Of a DNA stretch of 64,000 bases, positions 22,407 to 60,265 are shown piece by piece. This DNA comes from Candidatus Bathyarchaeota archaeon (GTDB lineage Archaea > Thermoproteota > Bathyarchaeia > Bathyarchaeales > Bathycorpusculaceae): positions 1 through 64,000 of the forward strand of contig CAVZPM010000037.1 of NCBI GenBank assembly GCA_963777155.1, in the 5' to 3' direction. Both the position numbers and the translations under genes were made by a program. Under the pieces are notes generated by a model, which was not told the DNA's origin, did not search any database, and saw only the letters and a program-made list of their open reading frames with translations. How positions within the stretch are numbered: position 1 is the stretch's first letter; each line of letters starts with the position of its first letter.

Positions 22407-22654
22407 GTTTTCACAGACTTGTAGTTGTTTTAACCGTGTTTAAAAGTCTTTAGAATCCAAACAAGAATCTCCAAAAATCAAAGAAAGAAAAAATGGAAGA
22501 TAGCGTGTGTGATTAAATTCTAATCTTTCTCTCTCTCTCGACTCAAACTCACTAACGACTACGACTACTAACTCTCACTCACCCACGCACGCGCGTGCCC
22601 CCGCACCCTGTCAGTCAGTCTGTCAAACTGCCTGTCTCACTGTCAGCGCTCGCT

Positions 22655-22678
22655 TGTAGTTGTGGTTCTACAGTCACA
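22655..22678 (+). promoter_or_regulatory. 24-bp regulon palindrome
   Basis: TGTAGTTGT ggttct ACAGTCACA aatcGTTAAAT. Confidence 0.7.
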
Positions 22679-22725
22679 AATCGTTAAATGACTGTAAGCT
22701 AGTTTTACAAGGTGGTGTTAAAAAA

Positions 22726-22959
22726 ATGAGCTTTTTGCATGCTAAAAACGGTAGTTTAGCTGTGTGGCTTTGTTGTGCTATTTTTGCAATAGTATCACGC
22801 ACAGGCTGCGAATCAGTTATACAAGCAGTGAATAAACAAATGAATATTTGGGATAATAAAAAAGGCGGTTTAGCTGGTTGGCTCTGGTACGCTATTGTAG
22901 TAGTAGTACTAATAATAATTCTTATCCTTGCTTTGAGATTTCTTTTCAACTTGATATAA
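22726..22959 (+). CDS. Small membrane peptide with internal duplication (alternative start 22840)
   Basis: GGTGGTG RBS; AKNGSLAVWLCCAI vs NKKGGLAGWLWYAI. Confidence 0.55.
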   Translation: MSFLHAKNGSLAVWLCCAIFAIVSRTGCESVIQAVNKQMNIWDNKKGGLAGWLWYAIVVVVLIIILILALRFLFNLI

Positions 22960-22985
22960 GACAAGCTGGAAGTAGGAAGATAGAG

Positions 22986-23314
22986 CTAGGGTTTCTTGAT
23001 GAACCGCCCTGTCTTCAAGTCTCTATATCTCGCTTGCTTGGCACCCTTAATGTTGACTGTTTCTATTCTCCAAGTGATAGCTCTCTTTCCAGCATTGTAG
23101 ACTTCAGAATAGCGTTTTCCTAGCATTGCTTTTTTATAAACGTCAGGAACATTGAAACCCAAGTTTTCAGCTTCTCTATTCAAAGCTTCCCATTGTCGAG
23201 TTAAACCTTTCCATCGTTGACCAGCCCACCAGCGAAAAGCAGTGGTAAATTGATGGTAAGACTCAAATCTGCCAATGCCCACATCGTTCTCAAATCTTCT
23301 GGGAACTTGTCCAT
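22986..23314 (-). CDS. Basic hypothetical protein of mobile-element type (frameshift near N-terminus)
   Basis: GGAG RBS and MDKFPE at 23314 joining ORF 22986..23282, which ends RYRDLKTGRFIKKP. Confidence 0.55.
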
Positions 23315-23399
23315 GTCAGTCGTCTCCTATAAGCAAAGAGATACCTCTCTTTTCCAGACCTGTATCGTAAACCACTTTTTCAACAAGGACTTATCATAG

Positions 23400-23548
23400 T
23401 GGATTTGATTGATAATTCTTGGCACCCATTCTTTCTTTTCGGTTCTCAGATATTTAGCAAACAAAAGAGCCTATTCGCTAATCAACGTGTCAATGGTTTG
23501 TCTTTTTCCGACCTTGATTCTTTCAATACTAACTTTGGAAAGAAAATT
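23400..23548 (-). pseudogene. cas1: C-terminal remnant resembling archaeal solo Cas1/casposase
   Basis: Manual translation FLSKVSIERIKVGKRQTIDTLISE*ALLFAKYLRTEKKEWVPRI; resemblance to Bathyarchaeia Cas1 C-termini recalled from memory, not searched. Confidence 0.5.
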
Positions 23549-23649
23549 TTAGCCCTCATGCCGATACTGCAAATGCTGCATAAAAATGGAGAGGGTCGGT
23601 TTTAAGTTTTCTTGGGGCTGGCAAAGTAGGGATGTAGGTGCATTGTCTT

Positions 23650-25787: not shown

Positions 25788-25997
25788 TTACTGCTTGTTG
25801 ACTTTGCTCTTCCAGTAAAGCAGAATCGCACCCGTCACAGTGGATGCTAACGCAGTCGCCGGAGCCTTAATCTCCAGCGGGATCGGCAAAGAAGCAACAA
25901 ACGTAGTAGCAGCGCCCGCAACTGTGCCAGCCAAAACGATCAGGGCTTCCTTATTCTCAGATACCTCTATCTCATCAACCAAACAAATCACCTCCAA
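25788..25997 (-). CDS. Small 2-TM protein (holin- or virion-protein-like)
   Basis: GGAGGTGA RBS; two short hydrophobic helices; next to right element end. Confidence 0.55.
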   Translation of the reverse strand: MEVICLVDEIEVSENKEALIVLAGTVAGAATTFVASLPIPLEIKAPATALASTVTGAILLYWKSKVNKQ

Positions 25998-26166
25998 GAA
26001 GCGTTAACAGGAAAAAATCATTTTGAAAGTATTCAGTGAGAGTAAGAGTAGAGGAGTAGGAGTAGATTTTAGTTGGTAAATCAGAGAGAGAAAGATTAAA
26101 TTCTAATCCAATCAACCAACCACTTCAAAATTAGAGGCAGTTTTAGAAACAAGGAAGCATGAACGT

Positions 26167-26517
26167 TTATACCCACTTTGTTTGAGACTGTGAATATAGT
26201 TTTCTCAGTTGTAGAACCTGCCAAAAAACAGCAATCCACGACAAAATTGTAAGTACAACTAATAGTCCAGACTGGATAACGTATCGGTAATACTGAATAT
26301 CTGTCTGGTTTACTGGAACAAGTACTTGCAATACAACTCCTGTCGGTGTTTTTGGCCATGGAAGAAAAGTGTATCCTGGAGTTGACCATTTGAGGGTTCC
26401 TTCATATTCGTAAATATGAGAGGCTACATAGTGGGCAGAAAAACTGTAAACTGAAATGACCATCGCTACTGAAATTAAAACAGCTAAAACAATCTTCGCT
26501 TTTTTGCTTTTTTTCAT
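26167..26517 (-). CDS. 2-TM membrane protein flanked by two GATTA-N5-TAATC sites
   Basis: ORF track; sites at 26094 and 26582. Confidence 0.65.
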   Translation of the reverse strand: MKKSKKAKIVLAVLISVAMVISVYSFSAHYVASHIYEYEGTLKWSTPGYTFLPWPKTPTGVVLQVLVPVNQTDIQYYRYVIQSGLLVVLTILSWIAVFWQVLQLRKLYSQSQTKWV

Positions 26518-26697
26518 GCTGTTCGATTAACTATTTAAGTTTTTTATGGGTCTTAAATTTTTCTATAGACTGAAAAGTGACAATTAAGATTTAATCCAAC
26601 CAACAAATTAACTTAGTTTTGTAATTCGTATAAGTACCCTTTATTAATAAAATAACTCAAGTTTCATTTAGGTGGGCTCTTCGACAAGTAACTTTAA

Positions 26698-27536: not shown

Positions 27537-27736
27537 TGCTTGTCATCATTTGAGAATAAACAGTGTACATAATTATAATCTTTCCTTGTAAAATCAACAA
27601 CCCATACTGACTATCCAAAGTTTTGTTCTAGTGGACCGATATACGTTCCTCTTATCTATTTGTCTGAGTTTTAATTTTTTTGGTGCGCTAAAATTTAATC
27701 AAAAAAAACTTGGTGGTGGCTAACATTTTAGTATAT

Positions 27737-28032: not shown

Positions 28033-28215
28033 TACTACTACTCTCTCTAAGACACACAAATAAGCGAATGAACCAAGTCTTTAAAGCTAAATCCTCAATA
28101 AAGAACCCGTAGGAACATTAGCAAAATGGCTAATAAGAGCAATTAGTGCGGACTTCTTAAGACTAAAAAAGGGGAAAGATAGTTTTGTTTGCTTTTTATT
28201 TATGGTTTTTTTCTG
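28033..28215. repeat. Conserved 3' tail class A of beta-propeller genes (also 36746-36928)
   Basis: Near-identical ~180 bp from ctactactctctctaagaca to ...gatagttttgtttgct. Confidence 0.9.
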
Positions 28216-30851
28216 AGCATCAACAGTGCAAGAACTGCGCCGACAAGAATTATTGCGACAATAATGCCGATTATGCCTGGTACAAAGTATAGATCAGCTG
28301 CCGAAGGTGCCTGTGTTGGTTGTGAAGTTGCTGTTGCATGTGCTTCGTCAACGACGAAAGCTGTTTGATCGTATGATCCATAGTATGCTTTGGAGCCTGC
28401 GAAGGTTGCGATGACTGTATATTTACCGGAAATGTCTGGCATCCAACTTAAGCTGTAGCTACCTGAGGAGTCGCTTGTGGTTGTTCCAATTTCACGGAAG
28501 TTTCCGTTTGCATCAACCACTGAGATTGTAACTGGAACACCGGTTGCATTGGTTGGCATCTCGAATTGCTTGTAGATATAGAGCATATATTGGCTTTGAC
28601 TTGCATCAGAGACTGCTGGAACACCGTTGGGGAACCGTAGTGCAATGCGTGAGTCGGTTGTGCCTGGTGAATTGTCGGTTACTCTTCCTGCTATGAGTAC
28701 ACTTTGTCCTGGTGCAGCGCCAAGGTCTGGAGCTGACACAGTGATTTTGCTTGCGCCTTTACCCATTGCATAGATCTGTAAGTCGTATGTATCGTAGCCT
28801 GCGATGATGCTGTCACCCATGACCGGGTTACCACCCCAACGAGTTTCACGCATCAAACCGTTTATGCGGAAGATTTCACTGCCGTCGGTTGCGTTAACAC
28901 AAGCGAATGGTCCGCCTCTTGGCATTGGACTGTTAGCAGAGTGCTCGAGAGTGCCGATGTAGACTTTGCCGGCTGCGATTAGGTCGATCCAGCCCCACCA
29001 GTTTTCACCAGTGACTGGCTCGTTGTACGGATCTTTTAGAGTGTAGGTCCATTGTGTGTTGCCATTTGAAAGATCATATGCATACATGATGCCTGCGAGA
29101 CCAACTGAGTACAGTTTGCCATAGGCAAAGTACCAAGTGTGTTCACCAGCGCCCGAACCGTATAGGTCAAGATAGTTTTCAGGTTCAGTAGCCCAGAGGT
29201 ATGATCCGTCGACAAGGCTGAAGCCGTAATGGGTTCTTAGTTCTTTGCTAAATACTGCCATGACACCGTTGCCATAAGTATCGTCTTTGACGTAGTTTGA
29301 TGCGCCAGTGTAGTAGAGTATGTTTGAACCTTCAAGCCATTCAGAGGGTGCTGCCCAGGTTTTGTCGAATATTGTTCCGATTGATTGTGTGTTTTTGGTT
29401 GCATTGCGAGTTGCAGTTATGCTGTCGATTGGTAGACCCCATAGACGCACCATGGTTTGGTTGTAGGCCATACCGACAACTCTGTCGCCGTAGTAGGCTC
29501 TAATATAGTTTGGTGAAGGCAAGCCTTTGGGTATGGTTACGTTCCATGAGTAGCATTTGGCTAGTGAACCGTTTAGGAATCTTTCAACTGGGAAAGCTGA
29601 ATTTATCTGCTGACCTATAGCGTTAGTTGGGTTTGTAGGGCCACCTGCGTCGCGTGCGCCTCTACCGTTTGCATCCATGCCTAAGACACCGAAGTCCCAG
29701 CTGCCATATGTTGGTTGTCCGAGAACGGCATTTTGTAGACCTGCAAGGGTAGAATTCCAAAGTGCCATCCAGCCGGCGTTGTAGTTGATTTGGTAGATGA
29801 GGATTTCTCCGTTTGGACCCCAGATTCTTGTGCCTGAGGGTACGCTGTGGAACATGAACTGGAATGAGCCATCGTTTGTGCTGTAGGCCGTGTAGTTGTT
29901 GCCGTTTACTGACCAGAGGTAGTTCCATACTCCGTTAACGTTGTAGCTTGGATAGAACATCGTCTGACCAAAATTCAGGAATGTTCCGTTTAAGAACCAA
30001 AGCTTCTCGCCTGTATGCAGATCGATTGCTTGAATGCCTGGTATGCTGGTTTGCGCGTATAAGCCGTTTCCTTGGGCGTTGTAATATAGTACTCCGTTGA
30101 TAACTACCGCGTTTGCGAATCTGCCTTCATATGCGTCGCCACCGTACATATCTGCAATTATATTGTTTTCGCCATCGTACAAACCGCCCGATATGCCACC
30201 TTGCTCATATGGAGTAGCCCATAGGATGTGGGGAGTCTCAGGAGCGTTATCTTGGTACTGTGCAAACGAGTTGAATGGTCGTTCTACCCAGTTGCCTGAG
30301 ATTGAATACCATTCTCTTAACTGTGGATCGATTGGGCGACTCCAATACTCAGTTGGTAAGGCATGACCAGGATAGAATTGTACATCTACGGATTCAACTA
30401 CTTCCAATGTCGTTGATATGGAGCTTGCTAGAAGTATAGTGCCTTGTTGTGTTGGTGCAATTCTTCCAGATACTAAGGCTGTTATTGGAAATGTGTTGTT
30501 AGGGAAGTTTGTTGTTATGGTGTAGTTTCCTATTTGGGTTGGTACATATGTGGTGTAGGTTGAGCCTGTAGAGTCAGTTGTGAATGGACCAAGAGTCTCG
30601 GTTGTTCCGTCTGGTTTTGTGACGGTAATGGTGATTCCACTCCAGCCATAAGATGCTGATGGTGCCGCCTCTGAGATACCACATTTAAGTAGTGTCTCCT
30701 GGCCAACACCGACAGGGTTAGGAATGGCATCGGCAATTGGATAGGTTTTCTGTGTCGCTTGTGCTTTTGCTGGTTGTATAGGTATTGTTGCAATTATTGA
30801 TACTAAGAATGCAACTAAAATCAAAGTAGATAGTATTTTCTTAAAATGCAT
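28200..30851 (-). CDS. PQQ-like beta-propeller surface protein, paralogue 2
   Basis: Intact 883 aa with family motifs, TM+RKKP. Confidence 0.88.
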   Translation of the reverse strand: MHFKKILSTLILVAFLVSIIATIPIQPAKAQATQKTYPIADAIPNPVGVGQETLLKCGISEAAPSASYGWSGITITVTKPDGTTETLGPFTTDSTGSTYTTYVPTQIGNYTITTNFPNNTFPITALVSGRIAPTQQGTILLASSISTTLEVVESVDVQFYPGHALPTEYWSRPIDPQLREWYSISGNWVERPFNSFAQYQDNAPETPHILWATPYEQGGISGGLYDGENNIIADMYGGDAYEGRFANAVVINGVLYYNAQGNGLYAQTSIPGIQAIDLHTGEKLWFLNGTFLNFGQTMFYPSYNVNGVWNYLWSVNGNNYTAYSTNDGSFQFMFHSVPSGTRIWGPNGEILIYQINYNAGWMALWNSTLAGLQNAVLGQPTYGSWDFGVLGMDANGRGARDAGGPTNPTNAIGQQINSAFPVERFLNGSLAKCYSWNVTIPKGLPSPNYIRAYYGDRVVGMAYNQTMVRLWGLPIDSITATRNATKNTQSIGTIFDKTWAAPSEWLEGSNILYYTGASNYVKDDTYGNGVMAVFSKELRTHYGFSLVDGSYLWATEPENYLDLYGSGAGEHTWYFAYGKLYSVGLAGIMYAYDLSNGNTQWTYTLKDPYNEPVTGENWWGWIDLIAAGKVYIGTLEHSANSPMPRGGPFACVNATDGSEIFRINGLMRETRWGGNPVMGDSIIAGYDTYDLQIYAMGKGASKITVSAPDLGAAPGQSVLIAGRVTDNSPGTTDSRIALRFPNGVPAVSDASQSQYMLYIYKQFEMPTNATGVPVTISVVDANGNFREIGTTTSDSSGSYSLSWMPDISGKYTVIATFAGSKAYYGSYDQTAFVVDEAHATATSQPTQAPSAADLYFVPGIIGIIVAIILVGAVLALLMLRKKP

Positions 30852-31030
30852 TTTTTCTTCTCCTTAAAGTTCTGAGGTCTTTAATGTACCAATTTGCTTT
30901 TAAATTTATGTATATTCGCGTAGGTCCGCACCGTTTTGTTCCTGCTAGCTTTAGCTGTACCGTTTCTCTGAAAAGGCAGGTTTCCGTCCTGTTCTATATG
31001 ATGATTCTTTACTTTTAGAATTTGGAAGGT

Positions 31031-31080
31031 ATGGAACCCCTTTATGGCCCCGAGTCCTGAGGGGTGCGTAGGGGTTCCAT
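31031..31080. repeat. Strong GC hairpin ATGGAACCCCT...AGGGGTTCCAT
   Basis: 11-bp perfect outer stem, inner CCCC/GGGG. Confidence 0.75.
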
Positions 31081-31340
31081 GTTCAATTTTTACGAAGCTT
31101 CTAGTTTTTACGTTGCGTGTCTTTCAATCAAAATTTAATCTTTCTCTCTCTAATACACACAAGACAAACAAACAGATAAAAATAAAAAAGTCCAGACATT
31201 GGATTGTTTTTTTGTTCTAAAAGACCGAACGCTTCACAATTGACGCCTACGCTGAGGTGGAAGGTTAATTTGCTCTCATTGAAAGAGTAATTTAAAATAC
31301 TTCAGTCTTAGTGTGTTTTTCAAAAAGAAAGGTGTAACCT

Positions 31341-32609
31341 ATGGCTTTAGATCCAGTTCTGAGGGCAATAGTGACCATATGCATATTGGTTTTCTCAGCT
31401 AAGGTACTGGGTGAAATTTTTTCGTGGAGAAAAATTCCCTCTGTTCTGGGCGAGTTGCTTGCAGGAATCCTGCTTGGACCGTACGCTTTAGGCTCTCTAA
31501 TCGCCATAAATGGAGCACCTGTAATTGAAATAAACGAAATTGTCCGAGCATTCGGAGAGATAGGCGGCATACTAATCCTTTTTGTGGCGGGTTTAGAGAT
31601 GACTTTTAGAGATTTCCGAAAAGTCGGCACAGCAGGATTTGTCATCGGAACACTCGGCGTTATTATTCCGTTCATAATGGGTTACGGACTTTCGATAGCT
31701 CTCGGGTTAGACACAATAACGGGTTTGGTAGTTGGTGCGGCGCTTGTAGCCACAAGCATCTCTATAACCGCTTTGGTTCTGCAAGAACTTAATCAATGCA
31801 GAAAGGTAGAATCAAGAATAATGATCAGCGCTGCGGTTGTTGATGACGTGTTGGGACTGGCAATCTTAGGTGTCATCGTCTCATTCATATCCACCTCAGC
31901 CCCTATTACTCCATTAAGCGTGATTGTCGTAATTTCTACTTCTCTTGCATTATGGTTAACCTTGACAGTTTTTGCAGCGATTATTCTTCCAAAAATAATT
32001 AATTTTACTTCGAAAGGAAAAGAAGGAGTTGTTGAGGCAGCAGCTACGGCATCATGTTTTGGTGCTTCCGCGTTAGCGGCTGTCTTGGGTTTGTCACCTA
32101 TTGTGGGTGCTTTTGCTGCAGGTATGGCTGTTGCGAGTTCCAATGCGATTGAGAAAATACGCGATTACACCAAGAAAATAAGCATTGTTTTTTCGCCTGT
32201 ATTTTTTGCGTTGGCAGGAGCACAATTTGACATTAGGAGCTTTATTACTTCTGACTGGTTCTTCTATCTCTTCTTCATAGCACTCGTTGTAGTAGCTATT
32301 ATTAGCAAAATGATTGGATGTGGAATCCCAGCTGCCTTCTTTTTGAAAGACCGCTCAAAAGGTGCTAAAGTAGGTTATGGAATGATTTCACGAGGAGAAG
32401 TAGGACTTATAGTGGCTGGAGTTGCCATCTCAGCAGGAGCTATTACACAAAGCACGTATGCCGCAATCTTGGGAATGATCATGGTAACGACAGTTTTAGC
32501 GCCCATACTTTTGAGAAGAGCGTACGATAAAGACCCACCTGAAGAAATAACATGCCAAACAGACGAAGACACAAACGCACCCGACTACATGCCCACTTAT
32601 CCACTTTAA
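31341..32609 (+). CDS. Cation:proton antiporter (CPA2, NapA/KefB-like)
   Basis: GELLAGILLGP, ATSISIT, AAVVDD, GMISRGEV. Confidence 0.93.
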   Translation: MALDPVLRAIVTICILVFSAKVLGEIFSWRKIPSVLGELLAGILLGPYALGSLIAINGAPVIEINEIVRAFGEIGGILILFVAGLEMTFRDFRKVGTAGFVIGTLGVIIPFIMGYGLSIALGLDTITGLVVGAALVATSISITALVLQELNQCRKVESRIMISAAVVDDVLGLAILGVIVSFISTSAPITPLSVIVVISTSLALWLTLTVFAAIILPKIINFTSKGKEGVVEAAATASCFGASALAAVLGLSPIVGAFAAGMAVASSNAIEKIRDYTKKISIVFSPVFFALAGAQFDIRSFITSDWFFYLFFIALVVVAIISKMIGCGIPAAFFLKDRSKGAKVGYGMISRGEVGLIVAGVAISAGAITQSTYAAILGMIMVTTVLAPILLRRAYDKDPPEEITCQTDEDTNAPDYMPTYPL

Positions 32610-32864
32610 GCTAAAGTTTCTATGAAATGGTTGTTTCATTTGATTGGCTAAGGGGCTCCATCCATTGTATAAATTTAGCAACAAATGAATGACCCAACGC
32701 AACCAATGAAGCTACAAACAACCCGTTAAAGACACTTAGTATCACCAGTTTCCAAAGTCAGTCCAAACAAAAAAATACTGGAATGTGTTCCATAGGTTCG
32801 TGATTAGGTTTTTTGTCGAGCTAAAACATTTTCGATATTTTTCCGTTTTGCATTTCTCAATTTG

Positions 32865-33240: not shown

Positions 33241-33482
33241 CTAAAGTAGGTTATGGAATGATTTCCCGAGGAGAAGTAGGACTTATAGTGGCTGGAGCAG
33301 CAATCTCGGCTGAAGCTATCACGCAAAGCACATATGCCGCAATCTTAGGAATGATAATGATAACGACTCTTTTGGCACCGCTACTTCTAAGAAGAGCCTA
33401 CGATAAAGATCCCCCTGAAGAAGCAACATTAACAGAAGACGAAACAAACGCACCCGACTACCTACCAACCTACCCACTTTAA
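33241..33482 (+). pseudogene. Duplicated 3' fragment of the CPA2 antiporter
   Basis: Near-identical to 32365-32609; similarity continues past the stop codon. Confidence 0.88.
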
Positions 33483-39763: not shown

Positions 39764-39880
39764 TCATTTCTGAGATACTTTGAAGAAAAAAGAGTTTGGG
39801 ACTAGAAATATTGAAGTTCCAACTGAAACTAGTAGAATTGCTGCAAACAAAATAGTCAAAGTTTTTTTCATCTTTTCCAT
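39764..39880 (-). pseudogene. 5' remnant (signal peptide only) of another beta-propeller paralogue
   Basis: MEKMKKTLTILFAAILLVSVGTSIFLVP resembles MQKIKNKTLTILIAAILTIS. Confidence 0.5.
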
Positions 39881-40024
39881 TCTTTGTACATGTCGTTTAA
39901 GGCAGGGTTCTCTAGGTAACTGTGAAAATGAACCACAGCAACTGCAACGTCAACGTCCTGATAAAGCAAATCACTGGGCTATTACGCCTTGTGAGAACTT
40001 GATAGAAAACCTTGAAATACTGAA

Positions 40025-40562
40025 TATGATAGAGCAGCCAATCAGTCAAAATTACGAGGCTAACAGTTGCTTGTCTAATAATTTTCTATGGGTTTGGGGG
40101 TTAAATTTTAATCCACCACCACCCCGATTACGTTGTGCATTCAGATTCTTAACAGATTTTATATTCCAAATAGCGAGTGCTTACTGTAGAGCGAGTCTGT
40201 TGATTAATACACAAAGACTATTTTCAGCAACTTTAACTATCAAATTAGCTGTTGTTCTGCTCATAGAACAAATTATAGACCTGGTTAGCACTCAAATCAA
40301 TTTGAGTTTTGGAAGTTACGAAGGAAACCCCATATTGGCAGCACAATTTAATCAAACACATTCAGTTGTTCAGTTTTCGTTGATTGGAAAATTTGTTTTG
40401 CCTTTGCTGCTTTTTCCAATGATATACTTTGTTTTTGTCAACAAAAACAGTGCTCCCAAATTTGATGAATTTGTCAGCAGATTTCTAACAGCATCTATTT
40501 TTGCTATGGTAATTTTTTATGTAATCGTTATAAGTTGGAATATTTTCTTGATTAAATTCTAA
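40025..40562 (+). CDS. Hypothetical membrane protein (start uncertain)
   Basis: Hydrophobic C-terminal half with EGNP motif; stop codon lies inside the 15-bp site. Confidence 0.4.
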
Positions 40563-40564
40563 TC
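40550..40564. repeat. Third exact copy of GATTAAATTCTAATC
   Basis: Right flank caaccaacc, like caatcaacc at 26109. Confidence 0.8.
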
Positions 40565-40679
40565 CAACCAACCAATTTTTTACTTCATTAGCAGTTTGAG
40601 TTGGGGATTAATTATTAGTCCAAAAAAGAAAAGGAGATAAACTGTCGCTCAAGGACTATGGCGTTTGTTAAAGACTTTT

Positions 40680-48943: not shown

Positions 48944-48968
48944 AGACAAAGGCGGACATCAATAGCAT

Positions 48969-50341: not shown

Positions 50342-50557
50342 ATAGAACGATGGGATTTAAACTTGGGACAAGTAGCGAAGTCTCCCGCACAACCCCATTT
50401 TTGCCATTCAACTAGTCTGTTCCAAAAATTTCTAAAGAGATAAAATTTACAATGCCTCTTTGATTTTAGCTTCAACAGTTAAATTTATCCAGAGTCTACT
50501 CAGCTCTGGTCTTAAACATAAATTGAAACTAAAAAAAGGGAGGGAGGTTGTTTTTTT

Positions 50558-53182
50558 TTATGGTCGTTTACGCATCATCATCAATGCCAGTATAGCGCCT
50601 ACCACGATTATTACAATGAATAGGCCAACTGAAACTGGGATGAAGTACATATCGGCTACTGATTGTTGTTGTGTTGTGGGTTCAGCCGTTGGATTTGCCT
50701 GGATGTCGAAGGCTACGGATGTTTGAGCTGATGAGCTATAGTAAGAATTTGATCCACCGAAGGATGCTGTTACTGTATATGTTCCTGGTACGTCGGGTGT
50801 GAAGGTGTATGAGTATTGTCCGTTGGCGTCGGTTGTGGTTGTTCCTATGACAAAGTAGTTGTTGTTGGGGTCAATGTATGAGAGTGTAACTGGAACACCT
50901 GTGGCGTTTGTTGGTTTAGGTGACTGCATGTAGAGGTATTCCATCCATCTGGCCATTGAATCGTCAGAGACTGCTGGTGTGCCTGCCGCAGGGATGCCAA
51001 GACAGGTTTGACCCGGAGACTGGTCTGTGACTGTTCCTGTGATCATGATCTTTGCGTTGTTGTTAATGACTGGCGCTGTCGCGACTGTTGTTGCGGTCTG
51101 TCCTCTGCCGTAGCAGTAGATTGAGTTGTCGTAGCCGTTAAAGGATAGCATGTAACCGTAGACGACCGGTAGACTTGAGCCGCTGGCAAAGTTGAGTATG
51201 TCCCAAACTTTTTCGCCTGTTGTTGCGTTAAGAGCATAGATTTTTGCACCGCTGAATAATGGTGGGCCATAGTCGTGTCCTGTTTCAACGTAGATCATAC
51301 CATCAGCTACTGAAGCTTCATAGTTGCCGATGATCCAGAGTGGGTTTACTCCGTATGGTGTGTCTGGTGTTTCGCCCGTACTCCAGTTCCAGATCTTCGT
51401 GCCTGTTGTCATGTCGAAGCAATAGACTTCTCCGCCGAAAGTCCATGTATAGAGTTTTCCGTAAGCACAGACTGCGCTGGTTTGGTCGTAATAGGCTAAG
51501 GGGTTCTTCATGGCTTCGGTTGGACCCCATACTTTGTCTCCAGTTGCTACACTGAATCCATCGAAAGTGAATGTTTCTTTTGTGTATCTTGCAAATGTGC
51601 CATTTGATGCGCCTGGCATTACCATTGTTGCTGCGAAAGGCGTGTTTGTAATGTTCTTAATCCATGATTGCTGACCATTATCCATGTCAACAGCGACATG
51701 CATTACCCATCCTGGGTTCCACCCATAAGATGCATACATTCCGGTACTGGTAGTCAATATGATCGTGTTAGTATCTGGATCCCAAACAGCGTGACCTGCA
51801 CCATCAAGTATCCAGTTGGGAATCGCATCGCCAGTTGACGTCTGGTTTGGAAGGATCGTTGACCACATTATACCGTCGTTGTATGGGTAGTTGCCGTTCT
51901 GTTGCCAGTTAAAGAATTGACTATTAGCTTTGTTTGTGCATTGGCTTGAATTCCATAAGTTCAGATATTGCCTACTCTTTCCACCGAAAGTAGCAGTGCT
52001 TAGATATAATTGCAGTAAACTACCGTCTTTTCCCATGAATTCCTGTCTTCCAAATGATCCACTGCCGCCGCCTCCCTGTATGCTGTAACAGTAGTTGCCT
52101 GTGGCTGCATCAAAAACGTCAAGGTATGTTACTCCAGATGTAGTTCTGGTTGCCCAGAGGTATGCTTGTCCACCGTAAGTGTTGTATGTCTTGTATATGT
52201 AAATCTGTCCGCAGAGTAGTATATCCTGTGAACCGTTCGAGAAGTAGTTGTTATAATTCTTTGTCCAAAGAGATTTGCCTGTTCTAAGATCGACAGCTGT
52301 GAAACCCTGATCCAACGAGTTGAAGTTTGGCTTTAGATTGTAGTAGAGTATTCCATTCATTATGATTGGTGCGAATTTAGGTTGATACTGAAAGCCTGAG
52401 TAATAGTTAGTTTCCGCGTTTCCTATGCCACCAAATTCGCCGCCTAGCTGACCACCGACATTAGATCCTGGAACGACAGTATCCTTCCAGATGATGTGTG
52501 GAGCTAAGACTGCTTTGGTGTATGGGTTGAAACAACCTGCAAAGGTATAGCCGCCTGTGTTTGCAAATTCAACATCACCAAGTCCCCACCAGTTGCCAGA
52601 GAATTCAGTCCACCAGTGGTTGAAGGCTTGTACGGGGTGTTGCCAATAGTCTGCTGGAAGCGGATTTTCCGGAATTGTAGTGTAGGGTTCATTCACAACA
52701 GTGAAAGTTATGATAGAACTTTCAGATGCTCCGTAGACGTCGCCAATAGAAGGACTAGTGCTGCTGTTGAAGCCGGGGTTTCCTTGAGCACCAGTCATGA
52801 CTTCACCTGGGAATTTCATTTGAGCAGTGTATGTGCCTAATATGCTAGGGGTATATACGGCTGTGTAGCCTCCTGCGTCGTCTGACTTAAATGGTCCTAA
52901 GGTTTCTTTGCTGCCATCGGGCTTAACAATTTCAATTTTCATGTCGATCCATCGGTCACCTAAGACGCCGTTTGCTGTTGGCGGTGGTTTATCAATCCAC
53001 ATTACCATCAAGGCGTTTTGGCCGATACCAACTGTGTCTGGGACTACTTGGAGGTAAGCCCAAGTTGGGATTGTGGTTCCTGGGAATAGAGCTGAGTTCG
53101 AGGGGGATATAGTTGTTGCCGCAATTGAGAATATCAATAGCGTCGTAATTGCAGCGAGAGTTTTTTTAACAATTTTATGCAT
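50558..53182 (-). CDS. PQQ-like beta-propeller surface protein, paralogue 4
   Basis: GGAGAAG RBS before MHKIV; GHDYGPPLF; TM+RKRP. Confidence 0.88.
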   Translation of the reverse strand: MHKIVKKTLAAITTLLIFSIAATTISPSNSALFPGTTIPTWAYLQVVPDTVGIGQNALMVMWIDKPPPTANGVLGDRWIDMKIEIVKPDGSKETLGPFKSDDAGGYTAVYTPSILGTYTAQMKFPGEVMTGAQGNPGFNSSTSPSIGDVYGASESSIITFTVVNEPYTTIPENPLPADYWQHPVQAFNHWWTEFSGNWWGLGDVEFANTGGYTFAGCFNPYTKAVLAPHIIWKDTVVPGSNVGGQLGGEFGGIGNAETNYYSGFQYQPKFAPIIMNGILYYNLKPNFNSLDQGFTAVDLRTGKSLWTKNYNNYFSNGSQDILLCGQIYIYKTYNTYGGQAYLWATRTTSGVTYLDVFDAATGNYCYSIQGGGGSGSFGRQEFMGKDGSLLQLYLSTATFGGKSRQYLNLWNSSQCTNKANSQFFNWQQNGNYPYNDGIMWSTILPNQTSTGDAIPNWILDGAGHAVWDPDTNTIILTTSTGMYASYGWNPGWVMHVAVDMDNGQQSWIKNITNTPFAATMVMPGASNGTFARYTKETFTFDGFSVATGDKVWGPTEAMKNPLAYYDQTSAVCAYGKLYTWTFGGEVYCFDMTTGTKIWNWSTGETPDTPYGVNPLWIIGNYEASVADGMIYVETGHDYGPPLFSGAKIYALNATTGEKVWDILNFASGSSLPVVYGYMLSFNGYDNSIYCYGRGQTATTVATAPVINNNAKIMITGTVTDQSPGQTCLGIPAAGTPAVSDDSMARWMEYLYMQSPKPTNATGVPVTLSYIDPNNNYFVIGTTTTDANGQYSYTFTPDVPGTYTVTASFGGSNSYYSSSAQTSVAFDIQANPTAEPTTQQQSVADMYFIPVSVGLFIVIIVVGAILALMMMRKRP

Positions 53183-53461
53183 TTTTTCTTCTCCTTTGTT
53201 TATTTGGCAAAAATAGCGCTGGCTACTGTTTGCCAACGCTTAAACGGTATCTAATGTTTTATTATAAATAACTTGCTAGAATCGTCAACCAACGTTAGGG
53301 GTAGATTAACCCGATGTTCGGGCTAGGAAAAATCTAAAACCTCTTCGATCGCAGCTTCAATCGCGTAATTTTTAACCGGAGCGTACTCAGCTCATTTTTT
53401 TCTCTAATGTTTGTTAAGGACTAAAAAAAGGGGAAAGATAGTTTTTATGGCTGTAGAGTTT

Positions 53462-56077
53462 TTACGGTCGTTTTCTCTGGAACAATATTATCAAAGCGCC
53501 AACCACGATGATGACAATGATTATAGCAGCGACAGATGGAACGAAATATTGGTCAGTAACAGATGGTGATGCTGTCGGAGCTGGAGTTGCTGTTGGAGCA
53601 GGTTCACTTACTGTGAAGGATGTTTCAGCTGCTGAAGGATAGTAAGATTCGGAACCATCAAAGCTTGCGTAGACAGTGTAATCGCCGGGTATGTCTGGAG
53701 TCCAAGTGAAAGTGTACATGCCGCTGCCGTCGCTTGTGGTGCTGCCGATGCTTCTGTAGTTTCCGTTAGAGTCAAGAACACTGATGTTAACCTTGACACC
53801 GGTAGTGTTTGTTGGGCATGGCTGCTGCATATAGACATACTCCATCCATGCACTCATGCTTTCGTCAGAAACACATGGGACACCAGTTGGGAAGTTTGTG
53901 GCTTGTGCTAGTTGTTTTGTGCCAGCAGAGATATCCACAATTGTACCTCGTATCACCATTTTTGAAACGAAGGGTTGGACTTGAACGGTCATTTGCGATG
54001 GCCCTTTGCTATATGCGTATATTTGGTTATCGTATGCATTCAACGCCATCATGATGTTGTCCACGATTGGAGCCCCATTTGTCACGTCAAAGCCTAGTAT
54101 CTTCCAAATCAGTGATCCGTCTGTAATGTTTAGTGCCAGTTGTTGTGCTCCTCGGAAAAGAGGCGGACTGTACTCATGGCCCACGTTAAGGAAATATACG
54201 CCGCCAGCAATAGACCCACCGCTGAAGACCCAAAGTGGCCAGACACCATAAGGAGTATCAGAGCCAGCTTCGCCGATGAGCGTGTTAGTATTTGTATACC
54301 AGAGTTCTTCTCCTGTCAATATGTTAACAGCCCACACGTCGCCTCCAAAGCCAATTATGTACATTACGCCGTTAGCAAGTTCTGTTTGGTAGCCTCCGAT
54401 GCTGTTGTAAGGATTCGGTACTGGGAAATTGCCGTTGTCGCCTGAAAGCTGTACTGGACCCCATACAAGAGATCCTGTGTTCAAGCTGAAAGCTCTGATT
54501 GTTCCTTGGGTTGCCTCAAGCCTAATTTCTAGTCCATATCCGACTTTTGTGATTTGGTCTCTTACGAAGGCGCCTAATGTTCTGTTGGTTAGCCATAATT
54601 GTGTTCCCGTGTTAGAGTTGAAGCCTGCTTCGATGCCATAGCCAGTGTTGAAAGTTCCAGACACGTCTGGTGAGGGCACTGCAGTCATAAGTACAACACC
54701 GCTGTTGACAGAGTTGATTGCCAGATTCTGCGGTAGTGGAACGCCTGAAAGGTTAGTTGGTAATGGTACTGTCCATACTATTCCCCGCTTGAAGTCAATG
54801 ACGCTGTTTTGGAGAGGTCTCCAATTCCAATTCGCCACTGTTGTTCCAGGTATGAATTGACTGTTGGGGTATAGAATCGCTTGTGTCGAGTTCCACATGT
54901 TCAGTGTCGGTGCAGTTGGAATTGAAGCGTTTACGTAGTAGCCTATTATATTGCCGCTTTGATCCTCTGTAAGCGTCATCGCAGAGCCGTTGACAATGCT
55001 AAGAATGAAATTGCCTGTTGAAGCGTCCCACAGATTCCAAATAGCGCCATTTACGCTTGGACCAGTTCCGAGATTAAACGGATTGATTAAGAGAGGGTTG
55101 CTCCACAAGTATGCTGTTGACCCAAACTGGTTGGGGTTCACCATCTGGAGTAATTGTCCGCACCTTAAAATGTCAGTAGTATTCTTTGTCCATAGAGTTT
55201 GTCCTGTACGTATATCTACTGCAACCCAGCCGCCTGGGGAAACATATGCTCCAGGATAGGTAACGTAGTACATTATGCCGTTTATGATGATTGGTGCCCA
55301 TTTTGGCTCGTATTGCGAAGTTGAGTAGTAGTTGCTTGTGTCGGTGCCTCCGAATTCTCCTCCAACTAAGCCTCCGAATGCAACTGGCTTTGTCCAGAGA
55401 ATGTGCGGCGCCTTTGGCGCGTCAGAGTAAGGATTGTAGTTTGAGGTGATGTTGTATCTTCCAGTGTTAGCAAATGAGTGTGCTCCGAATCCTAGCCAGT
55501 TTCCAGTTATAGAAGACCATACACCGTTTCCTGCTTGTACGGGGCGAGTCCAGAATTGTGTTGGAAGTGGATTTGTCGAAATAGGAGGTATTGCTTCTTC
55601 CTGAACTGTAAGAACAACAGTCGGACTTGTAGATGGTTGGAAGTAATCGCCAATATAGGGGCCAAAACCGCCGTTGGCTCCTAATAGTGTTTCACCTGGA
55701 TAGCTGAAAACAAAACTGTAATTGCCAAGTTTAGTAGGGGTATATAGTGTGTAGGTTCCGCCGGTATCGTCAGAGGTAAAGGGACCTAATGTTTCGGTTG
55801 TTCCATCTGGGTGTGTAACTGTCACTTTAAAATTGTGCCATCTATCTCCAGTTGCTGCAACAGCAGTTGGTGGTGGGATTTGGAGCCACATGCCAATGGT
55901 TACTGTTTGACCAAGACCCGCTGGGTCAGGTGCAACGTTAATGAAAGCATACGTTGGAATTTGCCAAGCAGGTGAATGAGCATTAGCACTTGGTAGTAAT
56001 AGTGTTGAAGTTCCTGTAGATGCCATCAAAATTGTTACAATCAAAATAGCCATAGATTTACTAGTCAGTTTTTTCAT
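53462..56077 (-). CDS. PQQ-like beta-propeller surface protein, paralogue 5
   Basis: GGAGA RBS before MKKLT; GHEYSPPLF; TM+RKRP. Confidence 0.88.
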   Translation of the reverse strand: MKKLTSKSMAILIVTILMASTGTSTLLLPSANAHSPAWQIPTYAFINVAPDPAGLGQTVTIGMWLQIPPPTAVAATGDRWHNFKVTVTHPDGTTETLGPFTSDDTGGTYTLYTPTKLGNYSFVFSYPGETLLGANGGFGPYIGDYFQPSTSPTVVLTVQEEAIPPISTNPLPTQFWTRPVQAGNGVWSSITGNWLGFGAHSFANTGRYNITSNYNPYSDAPKAPHILWTKPVAFGGLVGGEFGGTDTSNYYSTSQYEPKWAPIIINGIMYYVTYPGAYVSPGGWVAVDIRTGQTLWTKNTTDILRCGQLLQMVNPNQFGSTAYLWSNPLLINPFNLGTGPSVNGAIWNLWDASTGNFILSIVNGSAMTLTEDQSGNIIGYYVNASIPTAPTLNMWNSTQAILYPNSQFIPGTTVANWNWRPLQNSVIDFKRGIVWTVPLPTNLSGVPLPQNLAINSVNSGVVLMTAVPSPDVSGTFNTGYGIEAGFNSNTGTQLWLTNRTLGAFVRDQITKVGYGLEIRLEATQGTIRAFSLNTGSLVWGPVQLSGDNGNFPVPNPYNSIGGYQTELANGVMYIIGFGGDVWAVNILTGEELWYTNTNTLIGEAGSDTPYGVWPLWVFSGGSIAGGVYFLNVGHEYSPPLFRGAQQLALNITDGSLIWKILGFDVTNGAPIVDNIMMALNAYDNQIYAYSKGPSQMTVQVQPFVSKMVIRGTIVDISAGTKQLAQATNFPTGVPCVSDESMSAWMEYVYMQQPCPTNTTGVKVNISVLDSNGNYRSIGSTTSDGSGMYTFTWTPDIPGDYTVYASFDGSESYYPSAAETSFTVSEPAPTATPAPTASPSVTDQYFVPSVAAIIIVIIVVGALIILFQRKRP

Positions 56078-56264
56078 TTTTCTTTTTCTCCTTTTTCTTT
56101 CTGGATACGACATCTATAACAAAGTTAATTTAAAACTTACGATAGACCAACAAAAGCATCTGACAAAGAAAACAAATAACTACAGAATAGTCGATATTGT
56201 ACGAAAAAAACACCAAACATAAAACAGGAAATACTTAAATGACGCCCCACAATCAAAATGATAA

Positions 56265-57391: not shown

Positions 57392-57609
57392 TTCTCTGCA
57401 TATAAATCTGTATTTTTAAGGGTTTGCTGAGGCTCTGGGGTAGGAGAAAAGAGTAAACACAAACGCTCTTTTTTAACTACAACTATTTTTTTGGACTATG
57501 AAGAGCCTCCATTTAACATCTACTCTCAAACTAAAGTAATGTTCCCTTGATACCCGTGCATTTGCTGAAGTACCAATTATTTTGTCTTTGAAAAAATAGA
57601 CACACCGCG

Positions 57610-57879
57610 TCATTTAATAAAGTAAAAATAGGCTACCAGTAATCCTTGAATGAATAGAAAGATTGGAACTATTAAGAACTTGATTTTACGAGTTTTGTGT
57701 CTAAAAAACAACATACCAGCATAGGCACCAAACGGTCCAAAAAATGCAATCAACAAAAGCCTTGACTCAGGAACCCTCCAACTTCCCTTTTGGCTGTTCA
57801 ACTTGTCTATTCCAAAAACTGTTAAAGAGATAAAATTTACAATCACTAGAAAGATCCACAGGAACAAAACTTGAGTCAT
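57610..57879 (-). CDS. DUF1294 family membrane protein
   Basis: FGIDK...WRVPE..L...G.FGA..GM..FRHKTRK. Confidence 0.92.
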   Translation of the reverse strand: MTQVLFLWIFLVIVNFISLTVFGIDKLNSQKGSWRVPESRLLLIAFFGPFGAYAGMLFFRHKTRKIKFLIVPIFLFIQGLLVAYFYFIK

Positions 57880-58077
57880 ATTACTCCCACAGACAGAAGA
57901 TAGCTATAAGTTTTCTCTGATTACAGAATCGAACTGTTCCAGTTCATCTATTGTAAATGGCCTATATTTTTTTATTTGACCTCTTCATGAATCTACCAAA
58001 TGTAAGTTAGTAAAGAAAAGTCTTCCAAGGTCTTTCAGAATCTGGCCCTACAGAGAAAAAGAGGTTTTTCTGATACA

Positions 58078-58176
58078 TTAATGCACGCTATTATACCATC
58101 TGTTGACTTCTTGGATTGTTTTTTCAGAATATCCGTTTTTTCTTAAAAGAGTCCTATTGGACGAAGTCTTCCTCAT
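58078..58176 (-). CDS. 32-aa small protein (not in ORF track)
   Basis: GAGGAG RBS; MRKTSSNRTLLRKNGYSEKTIQEVNRWYNSVH; regulon motif upstream. Confidence 0.5.
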   Translation of the reverse strand: MRKTSSNRTLLRKNGYSEKTIQEVNRWYNSVH

Positions 58177-58226
58177 TATTTCTTCTCCTCAAGAATATTA
58201 ATACTCACTACTCATAATTAAGAGTG

Positions 58227-58250
58227 TGCAGTAGGCACCACACAATCACA
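58227..58250 (-). promoter_or_regulatory. 24-bp regulon palindrome
   Basis: Minus strand TGTGATTGT gtggtg CCTACTGCA cactcTTAATTAT. Confidence 0.55.
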
Positions 58251-58715
58251 CAGCTGGTTAGGTAGCAGTAAAGTAAAATAAATAAATAAGAAAAATAACC
58301 AAAAAAAGTTAAAGGTTAAGTTTTAATGGGACAAAATCGCGTTTTTGGCTGAAATCCAAACAGTGTTCTCCGGTATGGTCACATTCATATTTATTCAATC
58401 GGTAATTCAAACAACGCCTAAACAGTTTACAGGTCACACTAAAACACTGTGATTGTCAATAAATCATATTCAAGTTAAAAAGGCAAATTTCTAAAACAAT
58501 AATATATCAAAGGATGTAACTCAAGAAGCAGAGGGACGCTAATCAACACGAGCCTAACATCTCTATGGGAGTTAGAGGTCATATTCTTCCAAGTATACTG
58601 GAGCGGTCACTTCCCATCCGCCCTTTGAACGCAGATAGTTTTCTAAACTCAAGATCGATCCACTAATTCTACGCTAGGTTTTTTGTAATTAGTTAGCGTG
58701 CGCTTCTTCGGAAAC

Positions 58716-59993
58716 CTATTTGAGAGCAGTGTTAGTTTCATGGTTTTGAGGGTCATAGGAGCTGGTTGTAGGGTTTGATCTTTCTAGGAGGTCGTCTCGG
58801 CGTTTGAGGAGTTTTTCGAATTGTTCGTCCGTTATCTTGTCGTCTATGAGCATTTTGAAGATGGAGGCGGATATGTTTTTCATTTCTTGTTGAAATTTCT
58901 GGAGGTCTGGGGAGTATAGGTCGTAGATAGTTACCATGGTTTTGAAGAGGTGGTGGTAGAGTTTGTTTCGTCGCCATAATGTTCGGCCTCGAAGTCCTGT
59001 GATGCTGAGCACTAGTAGTGAAGCCAATGCAGCCCAACCAGCTGGAGTAGTAAACCAAAGGCTGGCATCTTTTTGTAAAATTTGTGCTAGAGATTCTGCT
59101 GGTGAACCACTGATGACTGTGTAGTTTGATGGGTATTGGTCGCCTCTTGCTATTGTGAATGTGGCTGTGTTTTCGCTGTGTGTACTTGATGGGAAGGTTT
59201 GTTTTATTTCTGTGTTCGCAGGCATGTTAACGTCGATGATTTGGTTTATTTTGAAGGTGTAACCTTGATAGCTGGTTGAGACTGGAAGGGTGAGGGTGTA
59301 GTTGTCGCCGTGTTGAGATAGGATGCTGGCTGGAGCTTCGAAGTGTAGGCTGTAGTATTGCTCGTCTTCATTGTAGTCCTTGTAGAGTTCCCATCGGCTT
59401 AGACTACCAACTGAGATTGGTGTCAAGTTAAACCCTGTTAACCAGTTTTCTAGGTTTCCCTGTCCAACAAGGTATTCGGGTGTTCGCGTTATATGGAACC
59501 ATATCCATAATTCGGTGGTTGAGTCTTCGGCGTTGAAAGAGAAGGTAACTCGAGTTGTGTTAAAGGGTACGTTGTACCAGTTCGTATCAACGCTCCAAGA
59601 AAAGTTTAGCCATGGACCTGGATCGGCAATAACTCTGTTTTGGAAACTTGAGAAGGAAGCGAAGTTTGCTTCGTACAAGTCTTCCGCGGTCGGCTGCAGA
59701 AGCGACCAGTCGAACATCTCGTAGGTTGAGACGAATATGTCGTTTGGACCAATTAGGCTCTGAGTCATGGATGCTTGGTACCAAGCTCCATCAGATATCC
59801 ACGTTGGTGCTTGGGGTAAGATACCTTCTTCAGACCAACTAACCTGTCCCATTGAAGGGGTGATGATATCGTGTATTTGCCAGACGTCAGTTTCGGCTTT
59901 GACGCATCCCAAGGTGAAAGAAAAAATTAAGATGATAAATAAAATAAACATCGCTGAAATGTGAAGACTATAACGTCCATTTTTTCTCCCCAA
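58716..59993 (-). CDS. Secreted membrane-anchored protein with cytoplasmic helical tail
   Basis: Signal peptide, beta-rich ectodomain, TM, KITDEQFEKL tail. Confidence 0.75.
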   Translation of the reverse strand: MGRKNGRYSLHISAMFILFIILIFSFTLGCVKAETDVWQIHDIITPSMGQVSWSEEGILPQAPTWISDGAWYQASMTQSLIGPNDIFVSTYEMFDWSLLQPTAEDLYEANFASFSSFQNRVIADPGPWLNFSWSVDTNWYNVPFNTTRVTFSFNAEDSTTELWIWFHITRTPEYLVGQGNLENWLTGFNLTPISVGSLSRWELYKDYNEDEQYYSLHFEAPASILSQHGDNYTLTLPVSTSYQGYTFKINQIIDVNMPANTEIKQTFPSSTHSENTATFTIARGDQYPSNYTVISGSPAESLAQILQKDASLWFTTPAGWAALASLLVLSITGLRGRTLWRRNKLYHHLFKTMVTIYDLYSPDLQKFQQEMKNISASIFKMLIDDKITDEQFEKLLKRRDDLLERSNPTTSSYDPQNHETNTALK

Positions 59994-60265
59994 TAGAGCC
60001 CCTCCAAACTGAGTATTTGTTTATTGTTTGTACATAAAAGTTTTTTCAATTGCGAAAGTCGGCTAGCGCGCGATGTTTTATCCTAAAATATCAACGTTTG
60101 GATTTGGATTAAATTTTGGTCTTTCTTACGTCTCAAAAAAATAGTGTCAATTGCATTAATTTTGGAAGGCGTCAACTTTCTTGGACTCGTTCCACCTCTT
60201 TGGTTTTTGCCCCGCGTCGAGCTCGTGATTTCACTCGCAAAACTCTCCTTTTCAAAGCAGCTAAT

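Follow-up and report, generated by a model that had tools for sequence, protein, structure and literature searches.

Several described systems offer points of comparison for small gene modules that are separated by short recurring sites. The attC sites of integrons are imperfect hairpins of 55-141 nt with RYYYAAC/GTTRRRY boxes that are used as folded single-stranded DNA, while dif and pdif sites are 28 bp long, consist of two 11-bp arms around a 6-bp spacer and are acted upon by a Xer recombinase. Phage morons are autonomous units of promoter, gene and terminator that have been inserted between phage genes. Repetitive extragenic palindromes (REPs) and bacterial interspersed mosaic elements (BIMEs), which are associated with REP-associated tyrosine transposases (RAYTs), and miniature inverted-repeat transposable elements (MITEs), such as the Correia elements of Neisseria, are extragenic, orientation-neutral palindromic repeats that can affect termination and promoters. 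The archaeal core promoter, which consists of the transcription factor B recognition element (BRE) and the TATA box, precedes the transcription start by about 25-30 nt. Integrons are also on record in archaea and consist mostly of clusters of attC sites without a neighbouring integrase (CALINs) (Ghaly et al. 2022, PMC9668308). Here, we describe a family of short palindromic sites in a metagenome-assembled genome (MAG) of a Candidatus Bathyarchaeota archaeon (GCA_963777155.1, here G000; 2.29 Mb, 39 contigs, 90.6% complete), as seen from the first 64 kb of contig C37 (CAVZPM010000037.1), which is referred to as the window. Our preferred interpretation, held at slightly less than even confidence and drawn from sequence comparisons, is that the sites are the junctions of moron-like gene cassettes and are bound by a putative sequence-specific protein. 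No description of the element was found in the literature on Bathyarchaeia promoters and on archaeal integrons and attC sites; the supplementary tables of PMC9668308, which lay outside this search, might list attC calls from Bathyarchaeia.

The consensus core of the element is GATTAAAWTTTAATC, an AT-rich palindrome of 15 bp. Read 5' to 3' on either strand, the core follows a G-rich simple repeat (GGTTGG, GGGTTT, GTGT or GAGA) and precedes a C-rich simple repeat (CCAACC, CCCAAA, CACA or CTCT). Among 168 arms, 33 were of the CCAAC type, 30 of the CT type, 21 of the CCCAAA type, 15 of the CA type and 10 of a poly-A type, while 59 were placed in none of these classes. The recurring flank classes of the original prediction are real. 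In the outward 20 bases of the arms, the mean number of G is 1.95 and that of C is 6.2. The sequence T[TC]TAATCTTTCTCTCTCT is present at seven sites in the assembly, and past the CT tract the strand is poor in G for about 100 nt (3-14% G), while C makes up 7% of the 20 nt upstream. The possibility of a common structured leader RNA was rejected, as seven CT-type arms align poorly and have only simple sequence in their common blocks.

Perfect symmetry reaches no more than 0-3 bp past the 15-mer in 82 of 84 sites. The folding energies of the three exact sites in the window range from -1.4 to -3.1 kcal/mol (z-scores of +0.5, +0.5 and -0.2 relative to shuffled sequences), and good folding was obtained for the GGTTGG/CCAACC type only (-12.9 kcal/mol). 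Since the palindrome is short and its three exact copies in the window fold no better than the shuffled sequences, we read it as a probable double-stranded site for a dimeric protein rather than as a hairpin. The analogy with pdif modules and integron cassettes that was drawn initially does not hold for the anatomy of the sites, because a 15-bp core that mostly forms no stable hairpin is the anatomy of neither attC nor dif/pdif. Variants affected one half of the palindrome in 20 sites and both halves in 6 sites, as compared to 3.2 expected, a difference that is not decisive (Fisher p 0.08). Pairs of sites only 22-25 nt apart, with a short C-rich repeat between them, were observed in two loci (L118:5667-5703 and L121:2651-2690), and look like empty units between two cores.

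Three exact copies of GATTAAATTCTAATC are present in the window, at 22511, 26094 and 40550 and all on the + strand, where 0.08 were expected, and none of 100 dinucleotide-preserving shuffles contained three. The three copies of the GATTA-N5-TAATC pattern reported at the outset are thereby corroborated. The pattern occurs seven times in the whole assembly, of which five copies belong to the family and two (C4:1275 and C26:9563) fall outside it. Contig C37, which holds 4.3% of the bases, carries 10 of the 17 family sites in the assembly. When the core was matched loosely, with up to 2 mismatches, 21 matches were obtained as compared to 11 for the reversed pattern, which is little more than noise, and it is the flanks, rather than a loose core match alone, that define membership of the family. 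Variants were scored with an nhmmer profile of the family, and the scores of the three exact copies and the site at 40099 are circular, since these four were part of the training set. As for the variants proposed originally, E values of 0.02 and 0.13 were obtained for those at 26582 and 60107, and the one at 31126 (E 0.6) has a full CT arm, while the one at 27686 is weak and the one at 40606 doubtful; the list was also incomplete, in that the sites at 11779 and 40099 had been overlooked (Table 1). The exact copies at 22511, 26094 and 40550 all have a derived TTC where the consensus has TTT; they are oriented alike but differ in their arms, and this variant has no further copy elsewhere in the assembly. 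It could reflect local copying or conversion between sites.

The exact 15-mer was searched for in 120 genomes of the genus and in 151 genomes from 12 families of the order; these and the other relatives compared (genomes labelled G, loci labelled L) are a sample. It was found in 62 of the 120 congeners, with a maximum of 16 copies per genome, whereas the reversed control was found in 3 genomes, once in each. This is not the frequency of chance matches in AT-rich DNA, which had been named as evidence that would speak against the family. If one mismatch is allowed, five site-rich genomes contain 32, 13, 29, 17 and 11 sites, as compared to 1, 1, 0, 0 and 0 for the control. One of the congeners, G065, which is assembled as a single contig, has 32 sites arranged in local groups. 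At the level of the order, the 15-mer is present in 26 of the 151 genomes and in 4 of the 12 families (f1, 9/35 genomes; f6, 3/25; f7, 11/35; f11, 2/34), with the same arm architecture in the other families as in the genus. The core was also found in contigs from head-tailed viruses. The island is not confined to the 22.5-60 kb first proposed, and the family is order-wide. Thirteen of the 75 listed sites (13 genomes) are no more than about 1 kb away from the start of a contig, and contigs that start at a site occur, for example G333:C121:3-17; it appears that short-read assemblies tend to break at the sites or at their islands.

The interpretation of the sites as junctions draws on the way in which homology between genomes ends. 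In a comparison with 60 congeners, the region at 21-41 kb was without long synteny and yielded only gene-sized matches (270-730 nt, 83-94% identity) in addition to paralogues of a gene for an 883-aa surface protein. Homology to G002 (L066, 91%) begins at the core at 22511, to the left of which the sequences are unrelated, and the 77-aa membrane protein gene on the right side is conserved in G002 along with its arm. Likewise, homology to G067 across the 116-aa gene stops at the core at 26582, beyond which the window has the CAACCAAC arm and G067 a CT arm. An inverted repeat of about 120 nt (97% identity) in G013 begins exactly at two cores that are 3.1 kb apart.

We also compared the arms of 84 sites in pairs, each site having at least 300 nt on either side. 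In total, 64 homologous arm pairs were identified, corresponding to 62 site pairs, of which 60 are homologous in one arm only and none in both arms. The remaining two are trivial, as they consist of sites 22-25 nt apart in the same locus. Homology extends all the way to the core in 30 of the 60 one-arm pairs; some of the short matches that reach the core represent the common CT tract only, and at least a dozen are 70-257 nt long. The opposite arms of the one-arm pairs are 26% identical, as compared to 29% for random arm pairs. The coincidence of synteny breakpoints with the sites, which had been suggested as a check, is borne out by these comparisons, and the fact that homology never crosses the core in 60 pairs is not expected from random intergenic breakpoints.

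Three small genes were found with a site on either side in unrelated contexts, one of which is viral. The clearest cassette in the window is the 116-aa gene, which lies between two sites as originally described, with the site at 26094 as its downstream boundary. Homologs were identified in 14 metagenome loci, nine of which show the upstream region and have 76-91% protein identity. Sites detected in the scan are located 61-64 nt upstream and 46-52 nt downstream of the gene in L122 and L123. L128 has a downstream site and a degenerate upstream one, degenerate upstream sites were judged by eye to be present in L124-L127 and L130, a downstream site is visible in L134, and the upstream site is kept in G067. 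The DNA outside the sites of this cassette differs from contig to contig. The second case is the DUF5658 module between 40099 and 40550, the counterpart of which in G060 is also located between two sites and has other neighbours. The third is a gene for a 140-aa membrane protein, which is flanked by two sites in G013:C8 and again, with 78% amino-acid identity, in the viral contig L145. A major head protein is encoded in L145, and portal, protease and major head proteins are encoded in L143, a further site-bearing contig. Taken together, homology that stops strictly at the core and site-flanked genes that recur in unrelated contexts point to a role of the core at the level of DNA, where it would form the end of segments that move or duplicate.

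The viral gene was examined in 22 related viral loci (L146-L167), in 16 of which both of the conserved tail genes are visible. The gap that follows the matched 140-aa gene, which has a conserved gene of the tail region on either side in this family of head-tailed viruses, is a hotspot for moron-type insertion with inserts of four kinds, including genes for a 444-aa secreted protein, a 286-aa helix-turn-helix (HTH) protein and the site-flanked 140-aa membrane protein. Among the ten filled loci, two carry the site-flanked cassette, one of which has lost the first site and has the break in homology at its edge. The insert also contains a canonical TATA box that belongs to the cassette gene.

If the sites are cassette junctions, they would represent an order-wide family of double-stranded, protein-binding palindromes in Bathyarchaeia that join independently assorting segments of DNA, often a single small accessory gene with its own promoter. 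Each segment would end in a half-site plus an arm, such that two abutting segments form a full palindrome. A putative dimeric, sequence-specific recombinase, transposase or nuclease, supplied in trans, would cut and join at the core, and the arms may be accessory sequence or by-products of the joining reaction. The array in this MAG may then be a fossil or may depend on an enzyme supplied in trans, in the manner of attC clusters without an integrase. A broader and more speculative version is that Bathyarchaeia and their head-tailed viruses share a hitherto unrecognised system for cassette exchange distinct from integrons, which would consist of small autonomous genes between half-sites with polar arms, a putative enzyme that joins them in either orientation, and bound sites that insulate the cassettes.

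A number of results weigh against cassette junctions. At the viral hotspot, 6 of the 16 loci are empty, with a gap of about 70 nt and no site available as a target, and 8 of the 10 filled loci hold the three other kinds of insert, without a site; the site-bearing insert, for its part, includes the arms outside both sites. Empty and otherwise filled loci without sites indicate that insertion at this position needs no sites and that the sites travel with the cassette. Homologous islands of small genes (the nine loci L069-L077, 44.9 kb), which have homologs of the CsbD, holin-like and other small genes in the window, are rearranged, with scrambled gene order and without any site. The conserved core is short for the core site of a recombinase. 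In addition, genes were called with our own hexamer model trained on open reading frames (ORFs) of at least 300 aa in the assembly, which produced 72 genes in the window, and small genes may have been miscalled.

The search for an enzyme points in the same direction. No match to PF00589, PF00239, PF01797, PF07282 or PF01609 was found in a six-frame search of the whole assembly, which is 90.6% complete; these five families cover tyrosine and serine recombinases, Y1 transposases, TnpB and DDE_Tnp_1. No recombinase was found either in a Pfam scan of 30 ORFs in the window, mostly among the 72 called genes, in agreement with the initial remark on the window; mobile elements of the MAG may have been lost in binning. 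Matches to tyrosine recombinases numbered 4-22 in five site-rich congeners and 3-13 in five site-free ones, and no gene family recurred across genomes among the 169 proteins encoded within 1.2 kb of sites. G065 has four PF00589 matches, none of which adjoins the site clusters, the nearest being weak and 3.5 kb away. In G038, two sites at the end of a contig have an integrase-like gene at a distance of 1.2 kb. The idea in the original prediction that the sites are recombination sites that build the island module by module is therefore sustained as far as the gene boundaries, the homology end points and the recurring site-flanked genes are concerned, and is weakened by the lack of a recombinase and by islands that shuffle without sites.

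The occurrence of the sites next to conserved genes is sporadic, which speaks for cassette junctions. None of 44 loci with orthologs of the Na+/H+ exchanger has a site within 330 nt upstream, where two weak pattern matches do not belong to the family, and what these loci have in common is an ordinary aatttaaata box some 45 nt ahead of the ATG. No site was found near any of 5 homologs of a 132-aa gene next to the site at C35:2628, and homologs in L071 and L072 of the 64-aa gene on the CT-arm side of 26094 have neither arm nor site. The sites are not a fixed part of the neighbouring genes.

The most serious alternative, which we consider possible but less probable than cassette junctions, is that the palindrome serves as transcriptional punctuation. 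A dimeric DNA-binding protein on the palindrome would insulate transcription units by acting as a roadblock or terminator in both directions, perhaps combined with outward promoter activity from which the G-poor leaders would arise, and breakpoints would occur at the sites only because whole transcription units are moved. The two explanations are not exclusive of each other, and the second is kept alive by the lack of an enzyme, the site-free shuffling of islands, the site-free hotspot, the proximity to stop codons and the enrichment between convergent genes in other families. For the counts of gene positions, duplicate loci and sites less than 60 nt from the end of a locus were removed. The proposed location at gene boundaries was recovered, in that 84 of 86 non-redundant sites in the genus are intergenic, although 79.6% of the assembly was called as coding; the TAA stop codon of ORF 39780..40562 also lies inside the site at 40550, as reported. 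The sites in the genus are nearer to stop than to start codons, with median distances of 156 nt and 332 nt, respectively; 16 of 81 are within 60 nt of a stop codon, which is overlapped in some cases, as compared to 1 of 87 for start codons. Among 27 sites from other genera and families, 13 are located in convergent gaps, as compared to a background of 17%. The median distance of the 27 sites to 3' ends is 77 nt, and that to 5' ends is 183 nt.

Additional observations fit with punctuation. The core is TATA-like, the canonical boxes here being TTTAAATA and TTTATATA, the lone site in L143 follows the gene for the head protease by 4 nt and lies upstream of those for the scaffold and major head proteins, and the second site in L146 and its CT arm face the downstream viral gene. 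The upstream site of the 116-aa gene also keeps its distance of 61-64 nt in the homologs. Against these stand the gene contexts in the genus, which equal the background: 48 sites are located between tandem, 18 between divergent and 16 between convergent genes (background 63%, 20% and 17% by count), and the adjoining gene ends are 87 5' and 81 3' ends, with no arm class favouring either. Genes that face a site have an ordinary frequency of TATA-like words at -70 to -25 (21% vs 19% of other genes), and orthologous positions in relatives are without sites. The 883-aa gene, which is well covered by transcripts, ends in an ordinary T6 tract without a site, and the hairpin energies of the exact sites, no better than those of shuffles, also speak against punctuation. 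Intrinsic archaeal terminators are oligo-T tracts of five or more at gene 3' ends; within the core, oligo-T reaches only T3-T4, and the sites are more often close to stop than to start codons but also occur in divergent gaps. Finally, homology that crosses the core in none of the 60 site pairs is better accommodated by cassette junctions.

A second alternative, to which we assign a low probability, is that the sites are selfish small repeats of the REP or MITE kind, in which a non-coding palindrome with arms spreads between genes and the neighbouring genes are bystanders. Such spreading would be consistent with the intergenic, orientation-neutral and patchy occurrence of the sites among species, with the length of the intergenic regions that carry them (median 586 nt vs 131 nt), with the duplication of core-plus-arm units inside genomes and with the position of 13 of the 75 listed sites near contig starts. 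Against it speak the arms, which reassort and do not form a fixed left-right pair, and the genes that keep a site on either side across contexts. No terminal inverted repeats or target duplications were seen around a defined unit, and no clean pair of a filled and an empty site was found among the loci. The copy number is at most about 32 per genome, and matches to Y1 (RAYT-type) and DDE transposases were not found in the MAG.

It is very improbable that the palindrome is the TATA box or operator of a stress regulon that includes CsbD, dodecin and holin-like genes. The neighbours of the sites in the window include genes for CsbD-like, dodecin, holin-X-like, GYD and cupin proteins, and known archaeal heat-shock operators have the same 5-N5-5 palindrome layout, but the sites have no bias towards 5' ends, with a single one of 87 within 60 nt of a start codon. 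The canonical TATA boxes peak at -50 to -41 from start codons, homologs of the same stress genes occur in the nine site-free loci, and the genes near sites share neither function nor family. In sum, chance and a plain intrinsic terminator have little support, and so does a role as ordinary promoter or operator.

The coordinates of the sites and of the genes discussed in relation to them are summarized in Table 1. The right flank of the site at 40550 resembles that of the site at 26094 for about 45 nt, and the site at 31126 has the gene for the 883-aa surface protein on one side and that for the Na+/H+ exchanger on the other.

Table 1. Palindromic sites and associated genes in the 64-kb window.
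Feature	Position	Strand	Remarks
Variant site AATTAAATTTTAACC	11779..11793		Left flank gggtttgg; nhmmer E 0.02; intergenic
Exact core GATTAAATTCTAATC	22511..22525		Left flank gtgtgtg; right arm TTTCTCTCTCTCTC, then G-poor to ~22640
77-aa small membrane protein gene	22726..22959	+	200 nt past the CT arm of the 22511 site
64-aa membrane protein gene	25788..25982	-	On the CT-arm side of the 26094 site
Exact core GATTAAATTCTAATC	26094..26108		Left arm cagagagagaaa (CT-type on the minus strand); right arm CAATCAACCAACC
116-aa gene, no assigned family	26167..26517	-	Flanked by the sites at 26094 and 26582
Variant core AATTAAGATTTAATC	26582..26596		Right arm CAACCAAC; nhmmer E 0.02; position kept in homologs
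Weak variant CGCTAAAATTTAATC	27686..27700		Left ttttttggtg, right poly-A; nhmmer E 0.2-5; membership uncertain
Variant core AATCAAAATTTAATC	31126..31140		Followed by TTTCTCTCTCT and a CA-rich arm; nhmmer E 0.6; full CT arm (TTTAATCTTTCTCTCTCT) present
Variant core GGTTAAATTTTAATC	40099..40113		Between gggtttgggg and CCACCACCACCCC; upstream boundary of the DUF5658 module
DUF5658-matching part of ORF 39780..40562	40269..40562	+	Match at residues 164-255
Exact core GATTAAATTCTAATC	40550..40564		Overlaps the TAA stop at 40560-40562; right arm CAACCAACCAA
Doubtful relative GATTAATTATTAGTC	40606..40620		nhmmer E 4.9-8
Variant core GATTAAATTTTGGTC	60107..60121		Left gtttggatttg, right CT-like; nhmmer E 0.13

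Other repeats were also observed in the window. Four paralogous genes for surface proteins of about 880 aa are located at 28200-30851, 50558-53236, 53462-56113 and C33:54883-57595, with matches to PQQ-like beta-propeller and Ig-like domains, and the C33 copy is 94% identical in DNA to 28159-30868. The segment at 28.2-30.8 kb is covered by contigs from four wetland or peat metatranscriptome runs at a likeness of at least 93%. In six such runs, 5-14% of the sampled words of the DNA were present, and the metatranscriptome contigs, from four runs, mainly cover the 883-aa gene and parts of 36.8-39.5 kb, with none over the palindrome sites. A conserved stretch of 34 nt with a T6/A6 tract is located past the 3' ends of three surface-protein genes (28157-28190, 36868-36901 and 50523-50556), and the contig cover ends near 28.2 kb; this stretch may serve the surface-protein genes as an ordinary terminator. 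Between the upstream regions of the two 883-aa paralogues, homology was limited to about 20 nt. A GC-rich inverted repeat (ggaacccct ... aggggttcc) is located at 31029-31080 upstream of the 883-aa gene, with a loosely similar stretch before the C33 paralogue.

The 3' end of the Na+/H+ exchanger gene plus about 20 nt (32365-32627) is duplicated 876 nt downstream (33241-33500) at 84-86% identity, which leaves a 74-aa fragment ORF with a match to Na_H_Exchanger. Dispersed repeats of about 270-300 nt with 87-88% identity occur at 18932-19231 and 36315-36614, and at C35:1853-2119 and window position 20509-20776, and both have relatives in congeners. Integration linked to tRNA genes was dropped, as Rfam gave no match in the window and only one tRNA was found in 18 related loci; a single tRNA-Leu was identified by ARAGORN near C35:2628. 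An alternative genetic code was considered as the cause of the low ORF density, with no sign of one, and a methanogen origin was rejected, as no McrA was found in the assembly.

Bathyarchaeia are abundant, uncultured archaea in soils and sediments, whose gene organisation and gene exchange are almost wholly uncharted. An easily recognised boundary element that is common to at least four families and to viruses, and that marks the joins of accessory genes, would provide a handle on the uptake of small stress and membrane genes, on gene flow between viruses and hosts and on a putative protein that binds or joins DNA, and could serve as a sequence tag for variable islands in MAGs. If the sites are insulators, they would represent a rare defined boundary element of transcription units in archaea.

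With regard to known systems, the sites lack the defining features of attC, dif, REP and core promoters that were tested. They resemble BRE/TATA promoters in having an AT-rich core similar to the local TATA words and a GA-type arm that recalls the purine-rich BRE consensus, but differ in their distance from start codons and in the statistics of orientation. The likeness to REPs lies in the palindromic, extragenic and orientation-neutral nature of the repeats; on the other hand, the assembly has about 17 sites, and none of the genomes examined more than 32, as compared to hundreds of REPs, and lacks a match to PF01797. Compared to both REPs and MITEs, no terminal repeats or fixed unit were seen, and the arms consist of simple repeats whose polarity runs strictly from G to C.

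Short inverted-repeat sites that flank small accessory modules are shared with dif/pdif, and the enzyme is encoded elsewhere in pdif systems. The differences are that 15 bp are conserved here, that the outer positions vary by arm class and that there are many copies per genome; a Xer-type recombinase (PF00589) was not found in the MAG. As in attC arrays and CALINs, short cassettes (about 0.45-1.3 kb here) are split by a recurring site that often abuts stop codons, and there is no neighbouring integrase, as in most of the archaeal cases in PMC9668308; the integron integrase (IntI, PF00589) was likewise not found in the 90.6%-complete MAG. What sets the sites apart from attC is the perfect, mostly non-folding palindrome with its extension of at most 3 bp, the cassettes that face both ways and the simple-repeat arms. 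Finally, the viral insert is similar to a moron, in that one small gene, which has a canonical TATA box of its own, is placed in the opposite orientation between two conserved viral tail genes, and related viruses show empty and differently filled versions of the locus. To our knowledge, morons with identical palindromes at both ends that are common to arrays in the host chromosome have not been described. On balance, the arrays would seem to work most like integron cassette arrays, with further resemblance to pdif modules and phage morons.

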